DNA of 55,570 nucleotides from an uncultured Candidatus Actinomarina sp. GTDB taxonomy: Bacteria > Actinomycetota > Acidimicrobiia > Actinomarinales > Actinomarinaceae. The translations under genes and the position numbers were made by a program. Positions within the stretch are counted from its first letter, which is position 1, and each line of letters begins with the position of its first letter. This document shows positions 362-42,085 of this stretch, in pieces. The stretch is from the NCBI GenBank assembly GCA_902576605.1, contig CACGVI010000004.1:1-55570 (forward strand). The letters are read 5' to 3'. The notes below the pieces were generated by a model. The model saw only the letters and a program-made list of their open reading frames with translations, searched no databases and had not been told where the DNA came from.

Positions 362-736
362 ATGGAGTTACATAAAGACAGTAAGTCACTAAGAGTTATT
401 ATTGATGTGAGTTATACATCACACGATGAATTTATAGATTTTATCGAAAATGAGCAGTGTCAATTTATTGATAGCCTGAACGTAGATGGTCTTAAAAAGT
501 TTGAATGGTATGTTAATGAGGAAACAAATACCGCTACATTAATCGAAGAATTTGATAATGCTGATAGTTTTAAAGAAATCGCAACTAAAGCAATAGGAAC
601 ACCAGTTAATTTAAAATTTCGTGAAATTACAACCTTTGAAAATATGACAATTTTAGGTGATGTATCTGATGAAATGAAAGAAAACTTAGCTGCTATGGGT
701 CCAAATTTCAGAACTTTTAAAGCAGGATTAAATTAA
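362..736 (+). CDS. Hypothetical protein, possibly dimeric alpha-beta barrel (ABM-like)
   Basis: 124 aa ORF with AAGGAG Shine-Dalgarno; FEWYVNE...LIEEF pattern resembles ABM-like proteins. Confidence 0.5.
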   Translation: MELHKDSKSLRVIIDVSYTSHDEFIDFIENEQCQFIDSLNVDGLKKFEWYVNEETNTATLIEEFDNADSFKEIATKAIGTPVNLKFREITTFENMTILGDVSDEMKENLAAMGPNFRTFKAGLN

Positions 737-747
737 TTAAATAATTT

Positions 748-1155
748 ATGAAACCAAAACAAAGAAGATCTATTGGTTTAATAATAAGAAGAATTATTGC
801 AGTTTTTATACTCTTATCAACAATCTCAGGAGTAGTAGATGCAGTTGTAACAAATTCATTTAATGATGATGTAATTGGAGGTGTATTTGTTAGCTTGTTA
901 ATAATATATTATCTTGGTCGCTCCCCTAGAAAAAATAACACAAATGCTGATTCAGAAATTGAAAACAACAATAGAGATGAAATTGATATTGATTTTGAAA
1001 TGGAAGAATTGGATGAAGAGTTTGACGAATCCCTAGAAGACTCTGAACAAATTCAAACTAATTATAAGTCACCAAGGGTAAACAAACCTAATCCTGTAAT
1101 AGACAAACAAAGTTTTTTATCAAGACTTTTTCAGGGAAGGACAGATAGGTACTAA
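748..1155 (+). CDS. Hypothetical membrane protein (2 TM plus acidic tail)
   Basis: Two hydrophobic N-terminal segments followed by a D/E-rich region. Confidence 0.55.
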   Translation: MKPKQRRSIGLIIRRIIAVFILLSTISGVVDAVVTNSFNDDVIGGVFVSLLIIYYLGRSPRKNNTNADSEIENNNRDEIDIDFEMEELDEEFDESLEDSEQIQTNYKSPRVNKPNPVIDKQSFLSRLFQGRTDRY

Positions 1156-1722
1156 TTATTTTATAAATTTGTCTTCAATCTGGTCATATACTTTATTTTC
1201 AATAGTTTCCAATGATACAATAATTCTTGAATCATTTTTTTTACTTTCTTGCCATAAAGGAACCATCGCATTCCAAACTCCTTCTCCCTTATACCGTGAA
1301 TATAGCGATGCAACTATATGTACACCAATCGTTATATAACTTAGAAAAGCTGATAATTCATGGAGAGCAATAGCTAATGTCATTCCTGGAAGCCCTGCAT
1401 TCAAGATACCAGCTATTAACAATCCTGTAGTTGGTAACATTATCAAACTAAAGTAGACAAGCCTGTGTGTTGCTTTTGCGATGAATAAATGACCTTTGTG
1501 CATCTCTTCATGAGCACCAAGTAACGTTTTTGCATCTTTCATGTAGAAGAATCGAAGCATAACAATGACTAAAAAAACTATAGCGAAGAATATTTCAAAA
1601 TTTAAAAGAGAAGCGTCTTCTAATTCTTCTAAATCTTCTACTTGTTTAAATATTCCATAAGCGTAGAGAATTGAGAAAGTCCAATGTATTGTTTTAGCTA
1701 ATCGTGTATGCGAATTTTCCAT
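1156..1722 (-). CDS. Cytochrome b561-like membrane protein
   Basis: Four TM helices with heme-ligand-like His residues (IHW, THR, LHE, GVH). Confidence 0.75.
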   Translation of the reverse strand: MENSHTRLAKTIHWTFSILYAYGIFKQVEDLEELEDASLLNFEIFFAIVFLVIVMLRFFYMKDAKTLLGAHEEMHKGHLFIAKATHRLVYFSLIMLPTTGLLIAGILNAGLPGMTLAIALHELSAFLSYITIGVHIVASLYSRYKGEGVWNAMVPLWQESKKNDSRIIVSLETIENKVYDQIEDKFIK

Positions 1723-1765
1723 TAAATAAATAATACATTTCCTAAGTAAAAATTAAAGTATAGAT

Positions 1766-3112
1766 ATGGATATTTATTTTGATTTACTACTACATTCAAT
1801 TGGTTTCGCTTTGATATTTAGAACTCGAATTCCATTTCAAATTGTAAATTTTGCATTGATTATATTCTATATCTCATCAACTATCCAGTTAGTAATTGTT
1901 GGCTACAAGTGGCAATATGTACCACTTTATTTAATTATTTTTATTGTTACGACTATGCATTTCTTCAATATGGAGAGTAAATATAAAATTACAAAAGTTG
2001 TTTATTATTTTTTGATGTTTTTAATTATTGGGATTAGTGCAACACTTGTTTATATTCTTCCAATACCAAAATTTGAGATTGAAAATAAACAGTATTCAGT
2101 TGGGTATGAAGAATTTCATGTTGTAGTTTCGGACAGAGAACAACCTAAAGCGTTTTATGAGCTTAGTAATTTAACAACTGAAAGTAATAGGGAGTTGCTA
2201 GTAGACGTTTATTACCCTAGTAGTGACAAAACAGAAGCTTCCCAGCTTTTTAAAGATGTTGATACAAATTGGGGTAAAACAGTAATTAGATATTTAAACC
2301 GAACTTGGGGTATATCACTTCCTGAGTTTCTATTAAGTCATTTAAATTTGTCGTATTTAGACATTGGTACAAATTTAGAAAGACTAGATATTAAATCTCC
2401 TGTAGTTATATATACTCACGGTTGGTCAGGTGAGAAAATTTTTGCAACAGACCAGTTAATTACCATTGCTTCACAAGGATATGTCGTCGTTGCTCTAGAC
2501 CATACAGGATTAGCTATGTTCACAGAATTACCAACCGGAACAATATACAATTCTGGATCAACAGAGGATTCTTCGAAAGTTTATGATGTTATGTATGAAA
2601 TGTCATTAGATATTGAAAACACAATAAATTATCTAGAGAATAAAAATTACCACGCTGATTTCTCAGATATAAGCCTAATAGGACATTCTACCGGTGGTGG
2701 TTCAGCGCATCTGTATTGCTCACGAAATGATTGTAATTCTTTAATACTTCAAGACCCATTTTTTGTTCCATTATTAGAAGAAGTTGGAACAATAGATTTA
2801 GTAACTGATTCATACTTTATTTACAGTGAAGATTGGTACAACGGATATGAAGATATTAATGATCTAAATGAAATTGAAGTCTATAGAAGTTATGTTAAGA
2901 ATAAAAACTTTGCTCAAGGATTTTATATGACCCAGTCAGCTCATTATGATTTTATAGCTTTCGGTGCAATAAGCCCCCTAGCTAAATACACTTTTCTTAA
3001 AGGAAGAATTGATTATAAAGATTCACTAAAAGCAAATAATAGATTTAATTTAGAAAGTTTAGCGTCAAAAAAGATTACAACTGACAAAATAGTTTATGAT
3101 ATTAAAGAATAA
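1766..3112 (+). CDS. Membrane-anchored alpha/beta hydrolase (PAF-acetylhydrolase-like)
   Basis: N-terminal TMs; PVVIYTHG, GYVVVALDH, nucleophile elbow GHSTGG, C-terminal SAHYDF. Confidence 0.8.
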   Translation: MDIYFDLLLHSIGFALIFRTRIPFQIVNFALIIFYISSTIQLVIVGYKWQYVPLYLIIFIVTTMHFFNMESKYKITKVVYYFLMFLIIGISATLVYILPIPKFEIENKQYSVGYEEFHVVVSDREQPKAFYELSNLTTESNRELLVDVYYPSSDKTEASQLFKDVDTNWGKTVIRYLNRTWGISLPEFLLSHLNLSYLDIGTNLERLDIKSPVVIYTHGWSGEKIFATDQLITIASQGYVVVALDHTGLAMFTELPTGTIYNSGSTEDSSKVYDVMYEMSLDIENTINYLENKNYHADFSDISLIGHSTGGGSAHLYCSRNDCNSLILQDPFFVPLLEEVGTIDLVTDSYFIYSEDWYNGYEDINDLNEIEVYRSYVKNKNFAQGFYMTQSAHYDFIAFGAISPLAKYTFLKGRIDYKDSLKANNRFNLESLASKKITTDKIVYDIKE

Positions 3113-16249: not shown

Positions 16250-16687
16250 TTATAGTTCTGCTACTTCTTTTTCAAAGTCAGATGCATCAGAAAACTCTTT
16301 ATACACAGAAGCAAATCGTAAATATGCTACTTCGTTTGTCTCTTTTAAATATTTAAGAACAGTTTCTCCTACAATTTCAGATTTAATTTTGTTTCCTTGA
16401 TTTTTTATTTCATTATGAATGTTGTCTACAAGAGTTTTTAACTTTTTATCATTTATATCGAGGCCTCCAAATGCATTTTCTATTCCTTTGTATAGTTTTT
16501 CATAGTTAAATTCTTGTATATCACCACCTCTTTTTTGGATCATTAAACCAATTTCAGCCTTTTCATACGTTGTGAATCGTAATTCACACTTAGGGCACTC
16601 TCTTCTTCTTCTTATAGAGTTGCCTTCATTGTTTTTTCGTGAATCAACAACATTAGTTTCTTCTTTATTACAGTAAGGACATACCAT
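16250..16687 (-). CDS. nrdR: Transcriptional repressor NrdR
   Basis: MVCPYC...VVDSR...IRRRRECPKC..RFTTYE zinc ribbon, ATP cone, VAYLRFASVY. Confidence 0.97.
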   Translation of the reverse strand: MVCPYCNKEETNVVDSRKNNEGNSIRRRRECPKCELRFTTYEKAEIGLMIQKRGGDIQEFNYEKLYKGIENAFGGLDINDKKLKTLVDNIHNEIKNQGNKIKSEIVGETVLKYLKETNEVAYLRFASVYKEFSDASDFEKEVAEL

Positions 16688-16722
16688 ATATAGTGTCATT
16701 ATAGTTAACTCTAAATCTTGTA

Positions 16723-16995
16723 TCAAATATTTTCGGGTAATAACAGTACTTGATCTTCAATAAGTAATGAATTATCTAAATTATTTATCTTTTTGATGAG
16801 ATAAATAAACTCTTGATGATTTTTGTTTGTAAATTTATGTGAAATACCCCAAAGGGTATCTCCTTTTTGTATTTTATATTCAACGGTTGGTGTATTTTCA
16901 TATTCATATTGTTGATTAATTGGTTTTTTAACAAAAAATATCATTAAACTGCTAAAAAAATATAAATATATTATTAAATTGATTTTTAACTTCAT
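16723..16995 (-). CDS. Membrane-anchored LysM protein (ChiZ/YneA-like SOS division inhibitor position)
   Basis: N-terminal TM plus YKIQKGDTLWGIS LysM; divergent from lexA and upstream of nrdR. Confidence 0.8.
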   Translation of the reverse strand: MKLKINLIIYLYFFSSLMIFFVKKPINQQYEYENTPTVEYKIQKGDTLWGISHKFTNKNHQEFIYLIKKINNLDNSLLIEDQVLLLPENI

Positions 16996-17032: not shown

Positions 17033-17048
17033 TCGAACATTTGTTCTA
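17033..17048. promoter_or_regulatory. LexA box (TCGAAC-ATTT-GTTCTA)
   Basis: GAAC-N4-GTTC consensus between lexA and the LysM gene. Confidence 0.92.
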
Positions 17049-17070: not shown

Positions 17071-17655
17071 ATGAATAAACAATCAGAAATTTTAGAGTAC
17101 ATAAATCAAAAATTAACCACTGAAGGTTACTCTCCTTCAGTTAGAGAGATAGCTAAGGCTGTAAATCTTAAATCAACAAGTTCAGTACAGTACCACTTAG
17201 ATAATTTAATTAAAAAAGGTTTACTAACTAAAAAAGCAAACTTATCAAGATCATTATCAAATAATCAAAAACTAAATACATTTATGTCAATTCCAGTTAT
17301 TGGTGAAATTTCCGCTGGCACTCCACTTCTGGCTGAAGAAAATAAAATTGGAGAGATTCCTATTGTTGAAGAAAAATATAATAAGGATCTCTTTGCATTG
17401 AAGGTCAATGGTGATTCCATGATTGATGCTGGTATTCATGATGATGATATTGTTGTTGTAGATAAAAATATAGAACCAAAAAATGGAGATATCGGTGCTT
17501 TTATGATTAATGACACAGAAGCAACTGTTAAATATCTATATACAATTTCTGGTAAAAAATACCTAATTCCAGCAAATAAAAAATATGAAAATTTTGAAGT
17601 TAATGAAAATACACAACCGATTGGAAAAGTTGTTAGTTTATTTAGAGATATATAA
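17071..17655 (+). CDS. lexA: SOS repressor LexA
   Basis: PSVREIA wHTH, Ala-Gly site ISAGTP, GDSM Ser, TVK Lys. Confidence 0.97.
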   Translation: MNKQSEILEYINQKLTTEGYSPSVREIAKAVNLKSTSSVQYHLDNLIKKGLLTKKANLSRSLSNNQKLNTFMSIPVIGEISAGTPLLAEENKIGEIPIVEEKYNKDLFALKVNGDSMIDAGIHDDDIVVVDKNIEPKNGDIGAFMINDTEATVKYLYTISGKKYLIPANKKYENFEVNENTQPIGKVVSLFRDI

Positions 17656-20609: not shown

Positions 20610-21662
20610 TTATTTTTCAGGTGTTGCATCCTCTGACTCTTCTACAGTATCTTCTTCTGTAGCCTCGTCTGATTCAATCATGCCAACTGCCTTGTACACA
20701 TCAGTTTCTAACTGCAAAGCAATATCAGCATTTTCTCTTAAAAATCTCTTAGAATTTTCCTTACCTTGACCTAGTTGAATTTCATCATAAGTAAACCATG
20801 CACCAGCTTTTCTAACTATTCCATGATCTACACCTACATCTAGCAAGCTTCCTTCTCTAGAAATACCTTGACCAAACATAATATCAAATTGAGCTTCTTT
20901 AAATGGTGGCGCAACTTTGTTCTTTACAATTTTTGCTCGTACTCGATTACCAATCATTTCAGCTCCAATTTTAAGAGTTTCAATTCTTCTAATGTCAATT
21001 CTTACTGATGCATAAAATTTAAGCGCTCTACCACCACTTGTAGTTTCAGGAGAACCCCACATAACACCAATTTTTTCTCTAATTTGATTGATAAATATAA
21101 CAGTTGTTTGTGTTTTATTGATAGATGATGTCAGCTTTCTTAACGCCTGTGACATTAATCTTGCCTGTAAACCTACATGGGATTGACCCATTTCTCCATC
21201 AATTTCGGCTTGAGGAACTAAAGCTGCAACAGAGTCAATAACTACTACATCGACACCTTCGGAATCGATCAACATATTTGCAATCTCTAGAGCTTGTTCA
21301 CCTGTATCTGGCTGTGATACAAGTAATTCATCAACATCAACACCAAGAGCGCTTGCATAGATGGGATCAAGTGCATGTTCTGCATCAATGAATGCTGCTA
21401 CGCCACCAGCTTTTTGAGCTTCAGCAGCAATGTGTAAAGATAATGTTGTTTTACCTGAGCTTTCAGGACCATAGATTTCTATGACTCTACCTTTGGGTAC
21501 ACCACCTATACCTAATGCAAGATCTATTGATAGTGCTCCTGTAGAAATTGAAGGTATCTTTCTAACTTGGTCAGAACCAAGCTTCATCAAAGAACCTTCA
21601 CCAAATTGTTTTTCTATCTGCGAAAAAACTGTATCGAGTTTTTTTGCCCTGTCTTTATCCAT
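20610..21662 (-). CDS. recA: Recombinase A
   Basis: [38 protein letters not shown]. Confidence 0.99.
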
Positions 21663-21727: not shown

Positions 21728-21743
21728 TCGAACATTTGTTCGA
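21728..21743. promoter_or_regulatory. LexA box (TCGAAC-ATTT-GTTCGA)
   Basis: Near-perfect palindrome upstream of recA. Confidence 0.95.
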
Positions 21744-24725: not shown

Positions 24726-25493
24726 ATGATTAAATTTGAAAATGTAAGTGTCACCTACCCAGGTGGAGTTGAAGCCCTAAAAGATTTAGATCTCGAAATC
24801 AATGAGGGTGATTTTATAATTATTGTTGGACTATCTGGAGCTGGTAAATCCACTTTGTTAAGAACCATTAATAATCTTGTTAAGCCTACAAATGGAACTG
24901 TTTTCCTCGAAGGTAAGGATGTAACTAATGCAAAGAAAAGAGACTTAAAGAACATACGTTCACAAATTGGAATGATTTTTCAAACATTTAATCTAGTCAA
25001 CAGATCTACAGTTTTAAAAAATGTATTAACAGGTAGATTAAGTACAGTATCTACTTTTAGATCTATATTTGGATTATGGCCAAAGGATCAAAAACAACTT
25101 GCTTTTGAAGCGCTCGATCAAGTAGAGATATTAGAAAAGGCTTATGTACGGGCATCTAACCTTTCTGGAGGCCAACAACAGAGGGTTGGTATTGCAAGAG
25201 CATTATCACAAAAACCTAAAGTAATGCTTGCGGATGAGCCTGTGGCATCACTTGACCCTATTACATCAAGGGTTGTTATGAATTATTTAAAGAAGATAAA
25301 TACTGAACTAGGTATAACTACAATCGTAAATTTACATTTTCTTGATTTAGCAAAAGAGTTTGGAGATAGACTAATTGGCCTTAGAGATGGAAAATTAGTT
25401 TTTGATGGAAATGTTGATGGTGTATCTGATGAAGATTTTGAAAATATCTATGGACGTTCTATTAAATCTTCTGATTTAATCGGTAATGATTAA
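24726..25493 (+). CDS. phnC: Phosphonate ABC transporter ATP-binding protein
   Basis: GLSGAGKST, LSGGQQQRV, LADEPVASLDP, VNLH. Confidence 0.95.
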   Translation: MIKFENVSVTYPGGVEALKDLDLEINEGDFIIIVGLSGAGKSTLLRTINNLVKPTNGTVFLEGKDVTNAKKRDLKNIRSQIGMIFQTFNLVNRSTVLKNVLTGRLSTVSTFRSIFGLWPKDQKQLAFEALDQVEILEKAYVRASNLSGGQQQRVGIARALSQKPKVMLADEPVASLDPITSRVVMNYLKKINTELGITTIVNLHFLDLAKEFGDRLIGLRDGKLVFDGNVDGVSDEDFENIYGRSIKSSDLIGND

Positions 25494-39350: not shown

Positions 39351-40214
39351 TCAGATGGAAAAAAGATTTTTTCCTTCAAATTTTTTTGTACCATTCACAT
39401 AGCTAAAGTACTTTCTGCATTCACAAGATTGATACTCTATGTCAATAGGATAAAACTCTCTTTTAGCTTCAGGCCAATACTCTCCTTGAAGTTCTATCAT
39501 TTTAAGGCCTACATCTTGGTGGCTATTTAAATTGAGAAAATTTTGGAGCCTATCTAAATATGGTTCTGCACCAATGCCAGTTGGAACATCAGTGGTAATT
39601 GGTATAACATCTTCTCTAAACCAGGCAATATCTATCAAAGCCATAAATATTGGGAAGTCATTATTCATCTTAAATTGCATATTTATATTGTTTGTAGCAG
39701 TAATAACATCTCTATTAGAATTTAAAACTATTTCAGCTAACTCTTCTTTTTTTTCATAAAATTTGTATGTGGCTGCATCTATTCGTCTATATAAATTTTG
39801 ATTCCAATATGAATCTTCTACTGGGTATGCTGTGAAATTCTCCCACTGCTCTAAACTAAGAAGCCTCTCTTTTAAAGCTTCTGGATTACTTAAATCATTT
39901 ATCGTTAACTGATCAATAGTTAAATCTCTGTTGCACCACCTACTAAAAAATAAAGATTGGATTAACAAAGGTAAATCCTCTTTTGCTGGTTCAGCAAATT
40001 TAATAATGGATTTACTTACTTTGTCATCCTCTCTAAAAACATTTAAAAAACGACCTTTTTGTAAAATTGGATCATCACTCCAGGGATATACTTCTCCTGA
40101 CTCTCTTTTAATACGTACTGCTTCACGTTTCTTGCAGTAATCAAAAAAGCTTTGTACTGGGTCATCTATTTCAAGACCATCTAGTGAGTGTGCATATGGA
40201 TTCTCTAAAACCAT
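39351..40214 (-). CDS. 5-hmdU DNA kinase helical-domain (aGPT-Pplase1)-like protein
   Basis: N-terminal REAVRIKRESGEVYPWSDDPILQKGRFLNVFREDDK and C-terminal DIEYQSCECRKY match remembered family motifs; no P-loop. Confidence 0.78.
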   Translation of the reverse strand: MVLENPYAHSLDGLEIDDPVQSFFDYCKKREAVRIKRESGEVYPWSDDPILQKGRFLNVFREDDKVSKSIIKFAEPAKEDLPLLIQSLFFSRWCNRDLTIDQLTINDLSNPEALKERLLSLEQWENFTAYPVEDSYWNQNLYRRIDAATYKFYEKKEELAEIVLNSNRDVITATNNINMQFKMNNDFPIFMALIDIAWFREDVIPITTDVPTGIGAEPYLDRLQNFLNLNSHQDVGLKMIELQGEYWPEAKREFYPIDIEYQSCECRKYFSYVNGTKKFEGKNLFSI

Positions 40215-40248: not shown

Positions 40249-41514
40249 TTACTTCACAACTGGTATTTGAAGCATATTTGTTGTGTAAGCAGCAGACTTT
40301 CTTTCCGACTTCATTCTCCAATCTTTTTTTATACCCTGTGCTCCCAGTGTTAATGTGCTTGATCCATACCTGGTATTAACCCCGTCCAGTACCTCCATGA
40401 CACGGTCTGATTGATCGTAGTTCTCATATTCGTAAAAACTGTACTGTTCGTTCTCTGCGTCAGTGATGTCTAGCAGCATTACACCAATTTTCTGGTACTC
40501 ATATCCGTACACAAAGAGTTTTCTTGTTAAGTATTTTGCTTCTTTGACAATCTTTGACGTATTGCTTGTTGGTATTGAAAAAAATGTACTCATACCGTTG
40601 CTATATCTTTTATCTGGATCAACAAATGGACTGGTTCTTAAAAATACATACAAGCCTTGTGCTCTAGAACCCTGTGCTCTCAACTTCTCACATGCTCTAG
40701 CAACATAGTTAGAAACAGCTTCCTCTAACTCACTTACTAGCATTACTTTTCTACCAAATGACTTAGAGGATATGATGTTTTTCTTATTCTTCACCTCTTC
40801 TATGCCAATACAGGAAATCCCATTTAGCTCATGATGTATCCTCTCCCCTACAATGCTGATTGTTTTTCTGACATAACGAGCATTTGCCTTCGTTAAATCA
40901 TAAGCGGTATCTACTCCAATTTTTCGAAGCCTTCTTCCCCATCTTGTCGAGATTCCCCATATCTCTTCAAGTGGTAGATCTTTTAAAATCTCATCTCTTA
41001 CACTCTGATCTCGTATATCGAAGACATTAGATGTTGTGTATTTTTTAGCTTGTCTGTTTGCTACTTTTGCCAATGTCTTTGTTGGGCCTATGCCTATAGA
41101 AACTGGAATCCCTGTCCACTGTTTAATTAATCTTCGTATCTCTTGAGCCGTCTCTTCTAAATCACAGTAGTAAAAGCTACTGATATCGAGAAACGCTTCA
41201 TCAATAGAGTAAATCTCTATATCGCTTACAAGAGATTTCAGTGAAGTCATCACTCTGGCCGACATATCACCATAAAAAGTGTAGTTTGATGAAAATACAT
41301 GAACTCTGTTTCTATTGATAAGTTGTTTGTATTTAAAGTACGGGGCTCCCATCGGTATGCCTAAAGCTTTTGCTTCATTTGATCTAGCAACAACACATCC
41401 ATCATTGTTAGACAAAACAACAATGGGCTTTCCTTCTAGCTTTGGGTTGAATACTCTCTCACAAGACGCATAAAAGTTATTACAGTCCACTAGGGCAAAA
41501 ATTTTATTATTCAC
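40249..41514 (-). CDS. umuC: Y-family DNA polymerase V catalytic subunit
   Basis: [32 protein letters not shown]-terminal [14 protein letters not shown]; GTG start with AAGGAG SD. Confidence 0.95.
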
Positions 41515-41528
41515 TTACTTACTCCTTT

Positions 41529-41546
41529 GAATACTGTACACTATTC
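41529..41546. promoter_or_regulatory. 18-bp imperfect palindrome (GAATACTGTACACTATTC), candidate operator of the umuC/umuD divergon
   Basis: Matches its reverse complement at 16 of 18 positions and overlaps TACACT (+) and TAGAAT/TACAGT (-) -10-like hexamers. Confidence 0.6.
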
Positions 41547-41569
41547 TAAGAAAAAAGAAAGACATTTTT

Positions 41570-42085
41570 ATGCCACGAGGTGGAGCAAGAAAAGGAGCCG
41601 GTAGGCCAAAAGGTCAAGGCAAGTATGGAGAGCAGACAAAAGCTGTCCGTATTCCTGTAAGTAAGATTAAGTATATCTCTGAGGTCATCAACAAAGGCTT
41701 ATATGAAGTACCAATGTATAGCAATAAAGTTGCAGCTGGGTTCCCGTCCCCTGCAGACGACTATTTAGAAGACAAAATAGATTTAAATCAATATTTGGTA
41801 AAACATCCCGCTTCTACATTTTTGGTAAGAGCATCCGGAGAGTCCATGATTAATGCTGGTATATTTCCAGACGATATCTTAGTAGTAGACAGAAGCTTAA
41901 AAGCTGAAGATGGAAAAGTAGTCATTGCTGTTGTAGATAATGAACTGACTGTAAAAAGATATCGCAAAAAAGGCAAGAGCATAATTTTAGAGCCAGAAAA
42001 TGAAACGTTTGATTCAATTGTTATTCCCCGTGAAAGTGAGGCTTTCGTTTGGGGAGTCGTTACAAATGTTATTCATAACTTATAA
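41570..42085 (+). CDS. umuD: UmuD-family S24 autopeptidase with basic N-terminal extension
   Basis: VAAGFPSPA cleavage site, GESM Ser, TVKR Lys; about 45 extra N-terminal residues (PRGGARKGAGRPKG...TKAVRIP). Confidence 0.92.
   Translation: MPRGGARKGAGRPKGQGKYGEQTKAVRIPVSKIKYISEVINKGLYEVPMYSNKVAAGFPSPADDYLEDKIDLNQYLVKHPASTFLVRASGESMINAGIFPDDILVVDRSLKAEDGKVVIAVVDNELTVKRYRKKGKSIILEPENETFDSIVIPRESEAFVWGVVTNVIHNL

Follow-up and report, generated by a model that had tools for sequence, protein, structure and literature searches.

A UmuDAb-type UmuD predicted to repress its own divergent umuDC cassette in Candidatus Actinomarina, with relatives in at least five phyla

Introduction

How is an error-prone DNA polymerase kept silent when its genes lack the LexA box that precedes lexA and recA in the same genome? 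The question is raised by a umuC/umuD gene pair (positions 40249 to 42085) in a 55,570-nucleotide stretch of DNA, hereafter the window, from an uncultured Candidatus (Ca.) Actinomarina sp. (Actinomycetota; assembly GCA_902576605.1, contig CACGVI010000004.1). A preliminary description of this DNA proposed that the UmuD of the pair, which has an extra N terminus, represses its own cassette through a palindrome, independently of LexA. Cross-phylum co-occurrence of the extended N terminus with a putative operator, together with homology to Acinetobacter UmuDAb, supports that central idea. From these comparisons of sequence, we consider it likely that the 171-amino-acid (aa) protein is a UmuDAb-type UmuD, in which a self-cleaving S24 core is joined to an N-terminal DNA-binding module of ∼44 residues, that it represses its own cassette apart from LexA, and that its C-terminal product is UmuD′.

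S24 repressors of error-prone polymerases have been reported in only two families, as UmuDAb in Moraxellaceae and HdiR in Streptococcaceae (PMC8565304). UmuDAb is treated in the literature as a Moraxellaceae feature, and its N-terminal domain has been modeled as LexA-like (PMC8565304, PMC4807011, PMC11332147). Our literature search found no paper on the module or its operator outside Acinetobacter. Although the mechanism is already known in kind, its family-wide distribution appears to be unreported and, judging by the genomes surveyed here, the UmuDAb-type design is far more widespread than the literature states.

Results

An extended UmuD lies head to head with umuC across a spacer without a LexA box

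As first described, umuC and umuD are divergent and 55 bp apart, which gene coordinates and family matches bear out. umuC (40249..41514, minus strand) encodes a 421-aa Y-family polymerase, the catalytic subunit of DNA polymerase V (Pol V), that matches Pfam IMS, IMS_C, and DUF4113 and NCBIfam UmuC (420.9 bits). Its start codon is GTG here and ATG in some sister genomes, and a Shine-Dalgarno sequence read from the minus strand (AAGGAG, 41522..41527) lies 7 nt ahead of the GTG. The umuD-like gene (41570..42085, plus strand) encodes a protein with a Peptidase_S24 domain at aa 48–164 (PF00717, E = 1.7e-29). The protein exceeds the cut-off of the UmuD family (PRK10276/NF007621, 160.5 bits versus 110) and falls below that of LexA (TIGR00498, 101.8 versus 110.95). 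The first 47 residues of the protein lie outside every Pfam domain, and its N terminus has no match to PF01726, the LexA winged helix. The source assembly is 758 kb and 63% complete, from a genome of ∼1 Mb with 33% GC; within it, this is the sole umuD-like gene, and the only other genes of S24/S26 type are lexA and one signal-peptidase-like gene.

Exact GAACATTTGTTC boxes are present at 17035, ahead of lexA (17071–17655, which has PF01726), and at 21730, ahead of recA (20610–21662, minus strand). A motif scan of the umuC/umuD spacer (41515..41569) for GAAC-N4-GTTC with up to one mismatch found none, in keeping with the preliminary description, which had contrasted the boxless spacer with the clear boxes of lexA and recA. 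LexA control of the cassette was rejected as an explanation, the spacer being without a box.

The spacer holds a single palindromic site that is conserved throughout the genus

Within the spacer lies a predicted 22-bp operator, TTGAATACTGTACACTATTCTA (41527..41548), identified by motif score and conservation. It has arms TTGA and TCTA, a GTAC core, and 5-bp A/T-rich spacers, and can be read as TTGA-ATACT-GTAC-ACTAT-TCTA, with one arm mismatch against TTGA/TCAA. The 18-bp palindrome originally noticed here (GAATACTGT/ACACTATTC, 41529–41546), in which 8 of 9 positions pair (16/18), forms the core of this site. When the 758-kb assembly was searched with a weight matrix built from the sites of other lineages, the operator was the sole strong match, with 26.0 bits against 13.6 bits for the next best site. 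The dyad symmetry reaches past the operator (41514–41561), with 27-nt arms that are 78% complementary, and the ribosome-binding regions of the two genes, both purine-rich, roughly mirror each other about the operator center.

No canonical −35/−10 pair was found in the 55-bp spacer by a strict sigma-70 scan, and so promoter placement rests on TANNNT hexamers and geometry. Promoters without an E. coli-type −35/−10 pair are not unusual in actinobacteria. The −10-like hexamers that had been noted over the palindrome on both strands are indeed there, TACACT and TATTCT on the plus strand and TAGAAT on the minus strand, and are the only ones on either strand. The left edge of the operator overlaps the umuC Shine-Dalgarno sequence by 1 base, from which we infer that any umuC transcript starts inside or beyond the operator; the right edge is 21 nt ahead of the umuD ATG. 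Since the upstream side of each gene is taken by the other gene, both promoters should lie in or around the operator.

We compared the cassette across the genus. Of the 37 Ca. Actinomarina genomes sampled, this one counted, 36 encode the umuD-like protein, at 74–100% identity, and at each of the 36 loci examined umuC stands head to head with it. Wherever one contig holds both genes, umuD is ∼24 kb from lexA, and this distance is kept even though the immediate neighbors of the cassette differ among species groups. Within Ca. Actinomarina, the cassette belongs to the fixed core and keeps its synteny. A genus-wide search with the operator pattern returned a single site in each of 40 genomes out of 41 (38 of them with 0 mismatches), and every site was at umuD. 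In the genus alignment, 20 of the 22 operator columns (91%) are invariant; in the flanking genes, only 5% (umuD) and 18% (umuC) of third codon positions are. The operator is kept although UmuD identity drops to 74%. The site is thus a local, single-copy control element under strong selection. One operator per genome also ruled out a global regulon in the genus.

The impression that the cassette is less AT-rich than its surroundings was borne out by GC content and, most clearly, by GC content at third codon positions (GC3). Against a genome baseline of GC 0.334 and GC3 0.211 ± 0.031, umuD has GC 0.386 and GC3 0.291 (z = 2.6), and umuC has GC 0.377 and GC3 0.336 (z = 4.1), the highest among the 643 genome ORFs of at least 150 aa. 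This GC3 is foreign-like, and an ancestor of the genus probably took the cassette up horizontally and later flipped umuC so that one operator serves both genes.

The extended N terminus and the operator co-occur in distant lineages

The extra UmuD N terminus, with its GAGRPKG arm ahead of an Ala-Gly site, reads as the preliminary description had it. As delimited by the family alignment and by AlphaFold 2 (AF2) models, the module (aa 1–44; 41570..41701, plus strand) comprises a basic Gly/Arg arm, RGGARKGAGRPKGQGKYGE, an extended TKAVRIP stretch, and a helix at aa 30–42. The family motif is [RH]GGxRxGAGR[PK]..[FY]GExTKxIR[IVL]PxS, followed by the helix, a linker of variable length, and LPLY..VxA|GFPSPADD. 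Across 44 sequences, G9, G11, R12, T23, R27, and P29 are invariant and G4, G5, R7, A10, E21, and S31 are near-invariant. We considered that the long N terminus might be a start-codon artifact and rejected this because the N terminus is conserved as protein across phyla while the DNA varies.

Extended UmuDs are found in at least five phyla: the hosts span Actinomycetota, Alpha- and Gammaproteobacteria, Planctomycetota, KSB1, and, as a variant, Bacteroidota. Carriers among one-per-species genomes include the PS1 clade, OCS116, Puniceispirillales, Rickettsiales, Legionella, Thioglobus (SUP05), Cycloclasticus, and Methylococcaceae, as well as Thermoguttaceae and other planctomycetes, KSB1, and the Flavobacteriales variant. 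The preliminary description had suggested examining homologues with a GGxRxGAGRP N terminus for a co-conserved upstream palindrome, and the outcome was positive. In species-representative genomes, scored for TTGA-N4/5-GT(n)AC-N4/5-TCAA with at least 11 of 12 matches no more than 200 nt upstream of the gene, the operator precedes 28 of 49 extended UmuD genes and 0 of 30 UmuD genes with a short N terminus (Fisher p = 2e-8, for loci that are phylogenetically non-independent, although from many lineages). Many of the remaining extended umuD genes bear visibly related, more diverged sites. Examples of the upstream dyads are TTGAATAGTGTACATTATTCAA in PS1, TTGATTTATGTACACTAATCAA in Cycloclasticus, TTGATTAATGCACATTAATCAA in L. 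tunisiensis, TTGATTACTGTACATCAATCAT in KSB1, and TTGAATAATGTTACAATATTCAA in Thioglobus. The cassette is the only thing common to all operator-bearing loci, which singles out the encoded protein as the likely binder.

Mobile elements carry the same combination. A mobilizable A. baumannii plasmid encodes a 192-aa UmuD with the module behind the operator TTGATTATGTTACATATTCAA, and the conjugative plasmid pLPL of L. pneumophila Lens encodes a 168-aa UmuD with the module behind ATGATATTTGTACGTAAATCAA. On pLPL (locus 451–3025), a gene for an SOS-response-associated peptidase of the YedK/SRAP type is directly upstream of the extended umuD-umuC pair. Among viral contigs, about 4 of the 80 UmuD loci kept match the query from the N terminus; phages do not seem to be the main carriers of extended UmuD, and the type seems rarer there than on plasmids and chromosomes. 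The earlier suggestion that the cassette is portable therefore applies to the family, with its Legionella and Acinetobacter plasmids and several phyla, but not to Ca. Actinomarina, where the cassette is fixed. A metagenome contig (3288–3821, minus strand) encodes a 178-aa UmuD-like protein of a lineage other than UmuDAb, with the variant arm WGGKRSGAGPK, behind the perfect palindrome ACTTGAATATGTAACATATTCAAGT.

Gene order sets Ca. Actinomarina apart. In 80 species loci, umuC is beside umuD in 67, co-oriented and downstream in 61 of these, divergent in 5 (all Actinomarina), and convergent in 1, and the head-to-head order is specific to Ca. Actinomarina. The convergent case, a Legionellaceae assembly (313–2113) in which umuC is tail to tail with an extended umuD, is the sole other exception to co-orientation.

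The Actinomarina protein is a homologue of UmuDAb

In the UmuDAb operator, as described by the Hare laboratory, A/T-rich spacers of 4 bp separate a five-base GTnAC core from TTGA/TCAA arms; the A. baylyi site is AACTTGAA-N11-TTCAAGTT (PMC11332147, PMC4807011). The operator has been verified by gel shift and by in vivo mutations, and its core weighs most (PMC11332147, PMC4807011). Published changes that derepress are E24K, which abolishes repression, and K40P/R41P (PMC4807011). To recover UmuDAb genes, metagenome contigs were scanned with ACTTGAA-N3-GTNAC-N3-TTCAAGT. The scan gave 64 loci, 37 of them beside a UmuD-like ORF, with the site 44–68 nt upstream of the start, as published. All but one of the 29 distinct complete ORFs at these loci are exactly 203 aa long, and the 203-aa proteins carry E24, K40, A83-G84, S119, and K156 at the published positions (PMC4807011). 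They begin M(P/S)KKxEFEHGGARxNAGRKAQFxEPTKVIRVPESQVxFIKNWL and so contain a module of the form HGGARxNAGRK...EPTKVIRVPESQV.

By BLASTP, the window protein is 37% identical to UmuDAb over 191 aa, module included, with RGGARKGAGRP..YGEQTKAVRIPVSKIKYI aligned to HGGARENAGRK..FNEPTKVIRVPESQVNFI. In alignment A3 (UmuDAb numbering), G10, G11, R13, G17, T26, and P32 are invariant and R18, E24, R30, and S34 near-invariant. E24 aligns with E21 of the window protein, a near-invariant module residue, and K40P/R41P sits in the one helix of the module. The predicted self-cleavage site of the window protein, Ala56-Gly57 (VAA|GFPSPADD; 41735..41740, plus strand), is invariant in alignments A1–A3 and aligns with A83-G84 of UmuDAb and C24-G25 of E. 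coli UmuD. The predicted catalytic residues, Ser92 (41843..41845, plus strand) and Lys129 (41954..41956, plus strand), are likewise invariant and align with S119 and K156 of UmuDAb. The operators are also bridged by intermediate forms, as Thioglobus has GTTAC with 5-bp spacers and the A. baumannii plasmid GTTAC with 4-bp spacers. UmuDAb had been cited as a precedent for a UmuD-like repressor. The likeness holds, but the shared N-terminal module and operator form indicate that the window protein is a homologue of UmuDAb, not a mere analogue.

For full repression, UmuDAb uses the co-repressor DdrR, which raises its binding to the operator (PMC11332147, PMC4807011). With an 82-aa candidate DdrR, named only by its position upstream of and divergent from umuDAb, tblastn gave no match better than E = 5 in the Ca. 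Actinomarina assembly, none among species loci L041–L120, and none outside Acinetobacter-type loci. By this search, DdrR appears to be specific to Acinetobacter, and we therefore treat it as accessory and not as defining for the wider family. The N-terminal domain has been described as setting UmuDAb apart from the other UmuDs of its genus (PMC4807011). The “ordinary” 190–197-aa UmuDs of Acinetobacter plasmids and chromosomes also have a GGxRxGAGRK...TKVIRVPES module and a UmuDAb-type operator.

The module matches no known DNA-binding fold

We found nothing like the module in Pfam (E up to 10), in PHROGs, or among PDB sequence profiles. The AF2 monomer of the window protein (predicted local distance difference test, pLDDT, 75.9) has one helix, at aa 30–42, and the residues ahead of it are without regular structure; that of UmuDAb (pLDDT 72.7) has one helix, at aa 33–46, and no strand. 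In the module region, the pLDDT of the monomer models is 44–76. The monomers of both proteins contain neither a ribbon nor a three-helix winged helix, and the idea that the extension is ribbon-helix-helix-like found no support in these models or in the Pfam and PDB comparisons. A possible reading mode is that a two-stranded ribbon contacts the GT(n)AC center while the basic arms lie in the A/T-rich spacers.

Other features of the window

lexA is beside a divergent nrdR (16250–16726), and the LexA box lies between the two. A third exact Cheo-type box, GAACATACGTTC, at 24950–24961, falls outside promoter regions, within a gene for an ABC-transporter ATPase (24726–25493), and could be either an internal LexA site or a match by chance. 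For the gene adjoining umuC (39351–40214, minus strand), the sole match is a partial one of 53 residues (63.6 bits) to PF18723, the helical domain of phage 5-hydroxymethyl-dU DNA kinases. This gene does not differ from the rest of the genome in GC3 and was found beside umuC in only 19 of 36 genus loci.

Discussion

How might a single site keep both genes silent? By homology with UmuDAb, a dimer of the intact protein would bind the 22-bp operator in the 55-bp spacer. The anatomy of the spacer suggests that the occupied operator would shut both divergent promoters, by occlusion or as a roadblock: with the umuC ribosome-binding site in contact with the operator, the umuD start codon 21 nt beyond its other end, and the only −10-like hexamers inside it, occupancy should block both. 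After DNA damage, RecA filaments would stimulate cutting at Ala56-Gly57 through Ser92 and Lys129, as has been shown for UmuDAb. The cut would part the DNA-binding module from the dimerizing core, so that both genes would be derepressed, and the C-terminal product (aa 57–171, 115 residues) would be a normal UmuD′ that presumably joins UmuC as Pol V. Since the assembly holds only this umuD, the 171-aa protein has to act as UmuD if Pol V is functional. Newly made full-length protein would then close the operator again, and the circuit would run parallel to the canonical LexA regulon of the genome without using it.

Other explanations deserve consideration. It is unlikely, although more credible than the remaining alternatives, that the protein represses through the operator but is a regulator only, because its fragment is not UmuD′ or because UmuC works without it, or that it needs a DdrR-like partner. 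UmuDAb has been described mainly as a regulator whose operator binding is boosted by DdrR (PMC11332147, PMC4807011), and tblastn found no DdrR homologue in the assembly. Nonetheless, the sole umuD-like gene of the assembly is paired with a full-length umuC in all genus genomes examined, the C-terminal domain scores above the UmuD cut-off and below that of LexA, and family members outside Acinetobacter also lack DdrR. Less probable still is that a bidirectional promoter has its core in the palindrome, or that another host factor binds there, and that the N-terminal extension has a different role, such as contact with RecA, the clamp, or DNA during translesion synthesis. The TANNNT hexamers on both strands of the site would fit such a role, as would the failure to predict a known DNA-binding fold for the module. 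The same dyad, however, also precedes umuDC operons that are co-oriented and have no divergent promoter, both on plasmids and in distant phyla; no host factor is common to all those lineages, and short UmuDs lack the site. Furthermore, UmuDAb has the same module and binds such sites in vitro, and mutating the module causes derepression (PMC11332147, PMC4807011).

We regard it as very improbable that the genes are an ordinary LexA-controlled umuDC pair with a degenerate or unusual box. The genome does have lexA and recA with Cheo-type boxes, and a one-mismatch GAAC-N4-GTTC site is present at 41301, in umuC. That site sits 213 nt into coding sequence, one-mismatch sites are frequent by chance (24 found, ∼15 expected), and none is in the spacer. 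Moreover, the conserved element is a different motif, which is also found in Legionella and Acinetobacter, both without LexA. Described LexA boxes differ among host phyla, as GAAC-N4-GTTC, GTTC-N7-GTTC, and CTGT-N8-ACAG. Legionella is reported to be without LexA. The same has been reported of Moraxellaceae (PMC8565304).

Several points weigh against self-repression by a UmuDAb-type UmuD, which we nevertheless favor. The predicted fold of the module, one helix at modest confidence, resembles no known DNA-binding fold. As the assembly is 63% complete, another umuD and additional operators may have escaped detection. No homologue of the candidate DdrR was found in the assembly, and repression may be weaker or may depend on another partner. 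Operator geometry differs as well, at 22 bp with GTAC and 5-bp spacers compared to 21 bp with GTnAC and 4-bp spacers for UmuDAb, and whether UmuDAb is also a polymerase subunit is unsettled in Acinetobacter. Finally, a maximum-likelihood tree of the C-terminal domain (117 columns) does not recover the extended forms as one clade. In this tree, which has a weak backbone and automatic labels that are wrong on at least two rows, extended and short forms are interleaved, and at least five changes are forced.

What does the distribution imply? A broader synthesis, which we put forward tentatively and would not yet call probable, is that the UmuDAb design is an old, horizontally mobile cassette, carried by conjugative plasmids as well as by at least five phyla, and not an invention of Acinetobacter or Moraxellaceae. 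Its unclassified module of ∼45 residues, which would not be the winged helix obtained by threading, would read TTGA-N4/5-GT(n)AC-N4/5-TCAA as a dimer. The Actinomarina protein would be bifunctional, serving as repressor and then as UmuD′ in a self-limiting circuit that runs parallel to LexA and uses one shared operator. What is local to the window locus is the single-operator divergon, the coexistence with LexA, the lack of DdrR, and the 22-bp operator with its GTAC core.

The genome studied here, which retains LexA, is among the smallest of free-living marine bacteria; the module and operator that it carries are found also in PS1/OCS116, SUP05, methanotrophs, planctomycetes, and plasmids of Legionella and Acinetobacter. 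This distribution suggests that self-repression is a common, transferable way of keeping Pol V silent. It would explain how umuDC moves between hosts with incompatible LexA boxes and bears on plasmid-borne mutagenesis genes. It also calls into question the winged-helix view of the UmuDAb N-terminal domain, and many natural variants of operator and protein are now available for learning how the module reads DNA. The single-operator divergon is also a compact natural part for damage-inducible, self-limiting expression.

How does the Actinomarina system compare with those already known? At the sequence level only, and as a lead more than a finding, the module recalls Arc/MetJ/CopG proteins and AT-hooks, with its basic GRP arm, alternating TKxIRVP, and helix, and with a dyad site whose center matters most. 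Arc/MetJ/CopG repressors have a strand-helix-helix fold that forms an intertwined dimer, whereas the module matches no profile, is modeled as a monomer without any strand, and has a single helix ahead of the cleavage region. LexA, HdiR, the non-canonical LexA of Bacteroidetes, Francisella FddR, and phage CI share the overall plan of an N-terminal DNA-binding part, an Ala-Gly linker, an S24 dimerizing and catalytic core, and RecA-stimulated inactivation. Their DNA-binding parts are winged helices or CI-type helix-turn-helix domains, whereas the module has no LexA_DNA_bind match; the genome's own LexA is a separate gene with a different box.

E. coli UmuD and UmuC are nearer. The C-terminal domain is homologous (PDB 8gmt/1umu, E = 1e-45 to 1e-42 against the family profile), UmuC is the partner, and the logic of cleavage from precursor to UmuD′ is the same. 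For E. coli UmuD, the alignment starts no earlier than profile position 45, and the 24-residue arm of that protein is without the module, whereas the N-terminal part of the window protein is 56 aa long. The E. coli operon is co-oriented and has LexA boxes, whereas the window genes are divergent and have none. UmuDAb is longer, at 203 aa compared to 171 aa with a short linker, and is accompanied by ddrR, whereas in the window cassette, which is without ddrR, the divergent partner is umuC itself; its host, too, differs from the window host, an actinobacterium with a genome of ∼1 Mb that keeps canonical LexA and has one umuD. Yet the two proteins share the UmuD-type S24 core with its Ala-Gly site and Ser/Lys dyad, the N-terminal module (GGxRxxAGR..., ExTKxIRVPxS, and one helix), an upstream operator with TTGA/TCAA-type arms around GT(n)AC, and a small local regulon made up of their own gene and the polymerase genes.

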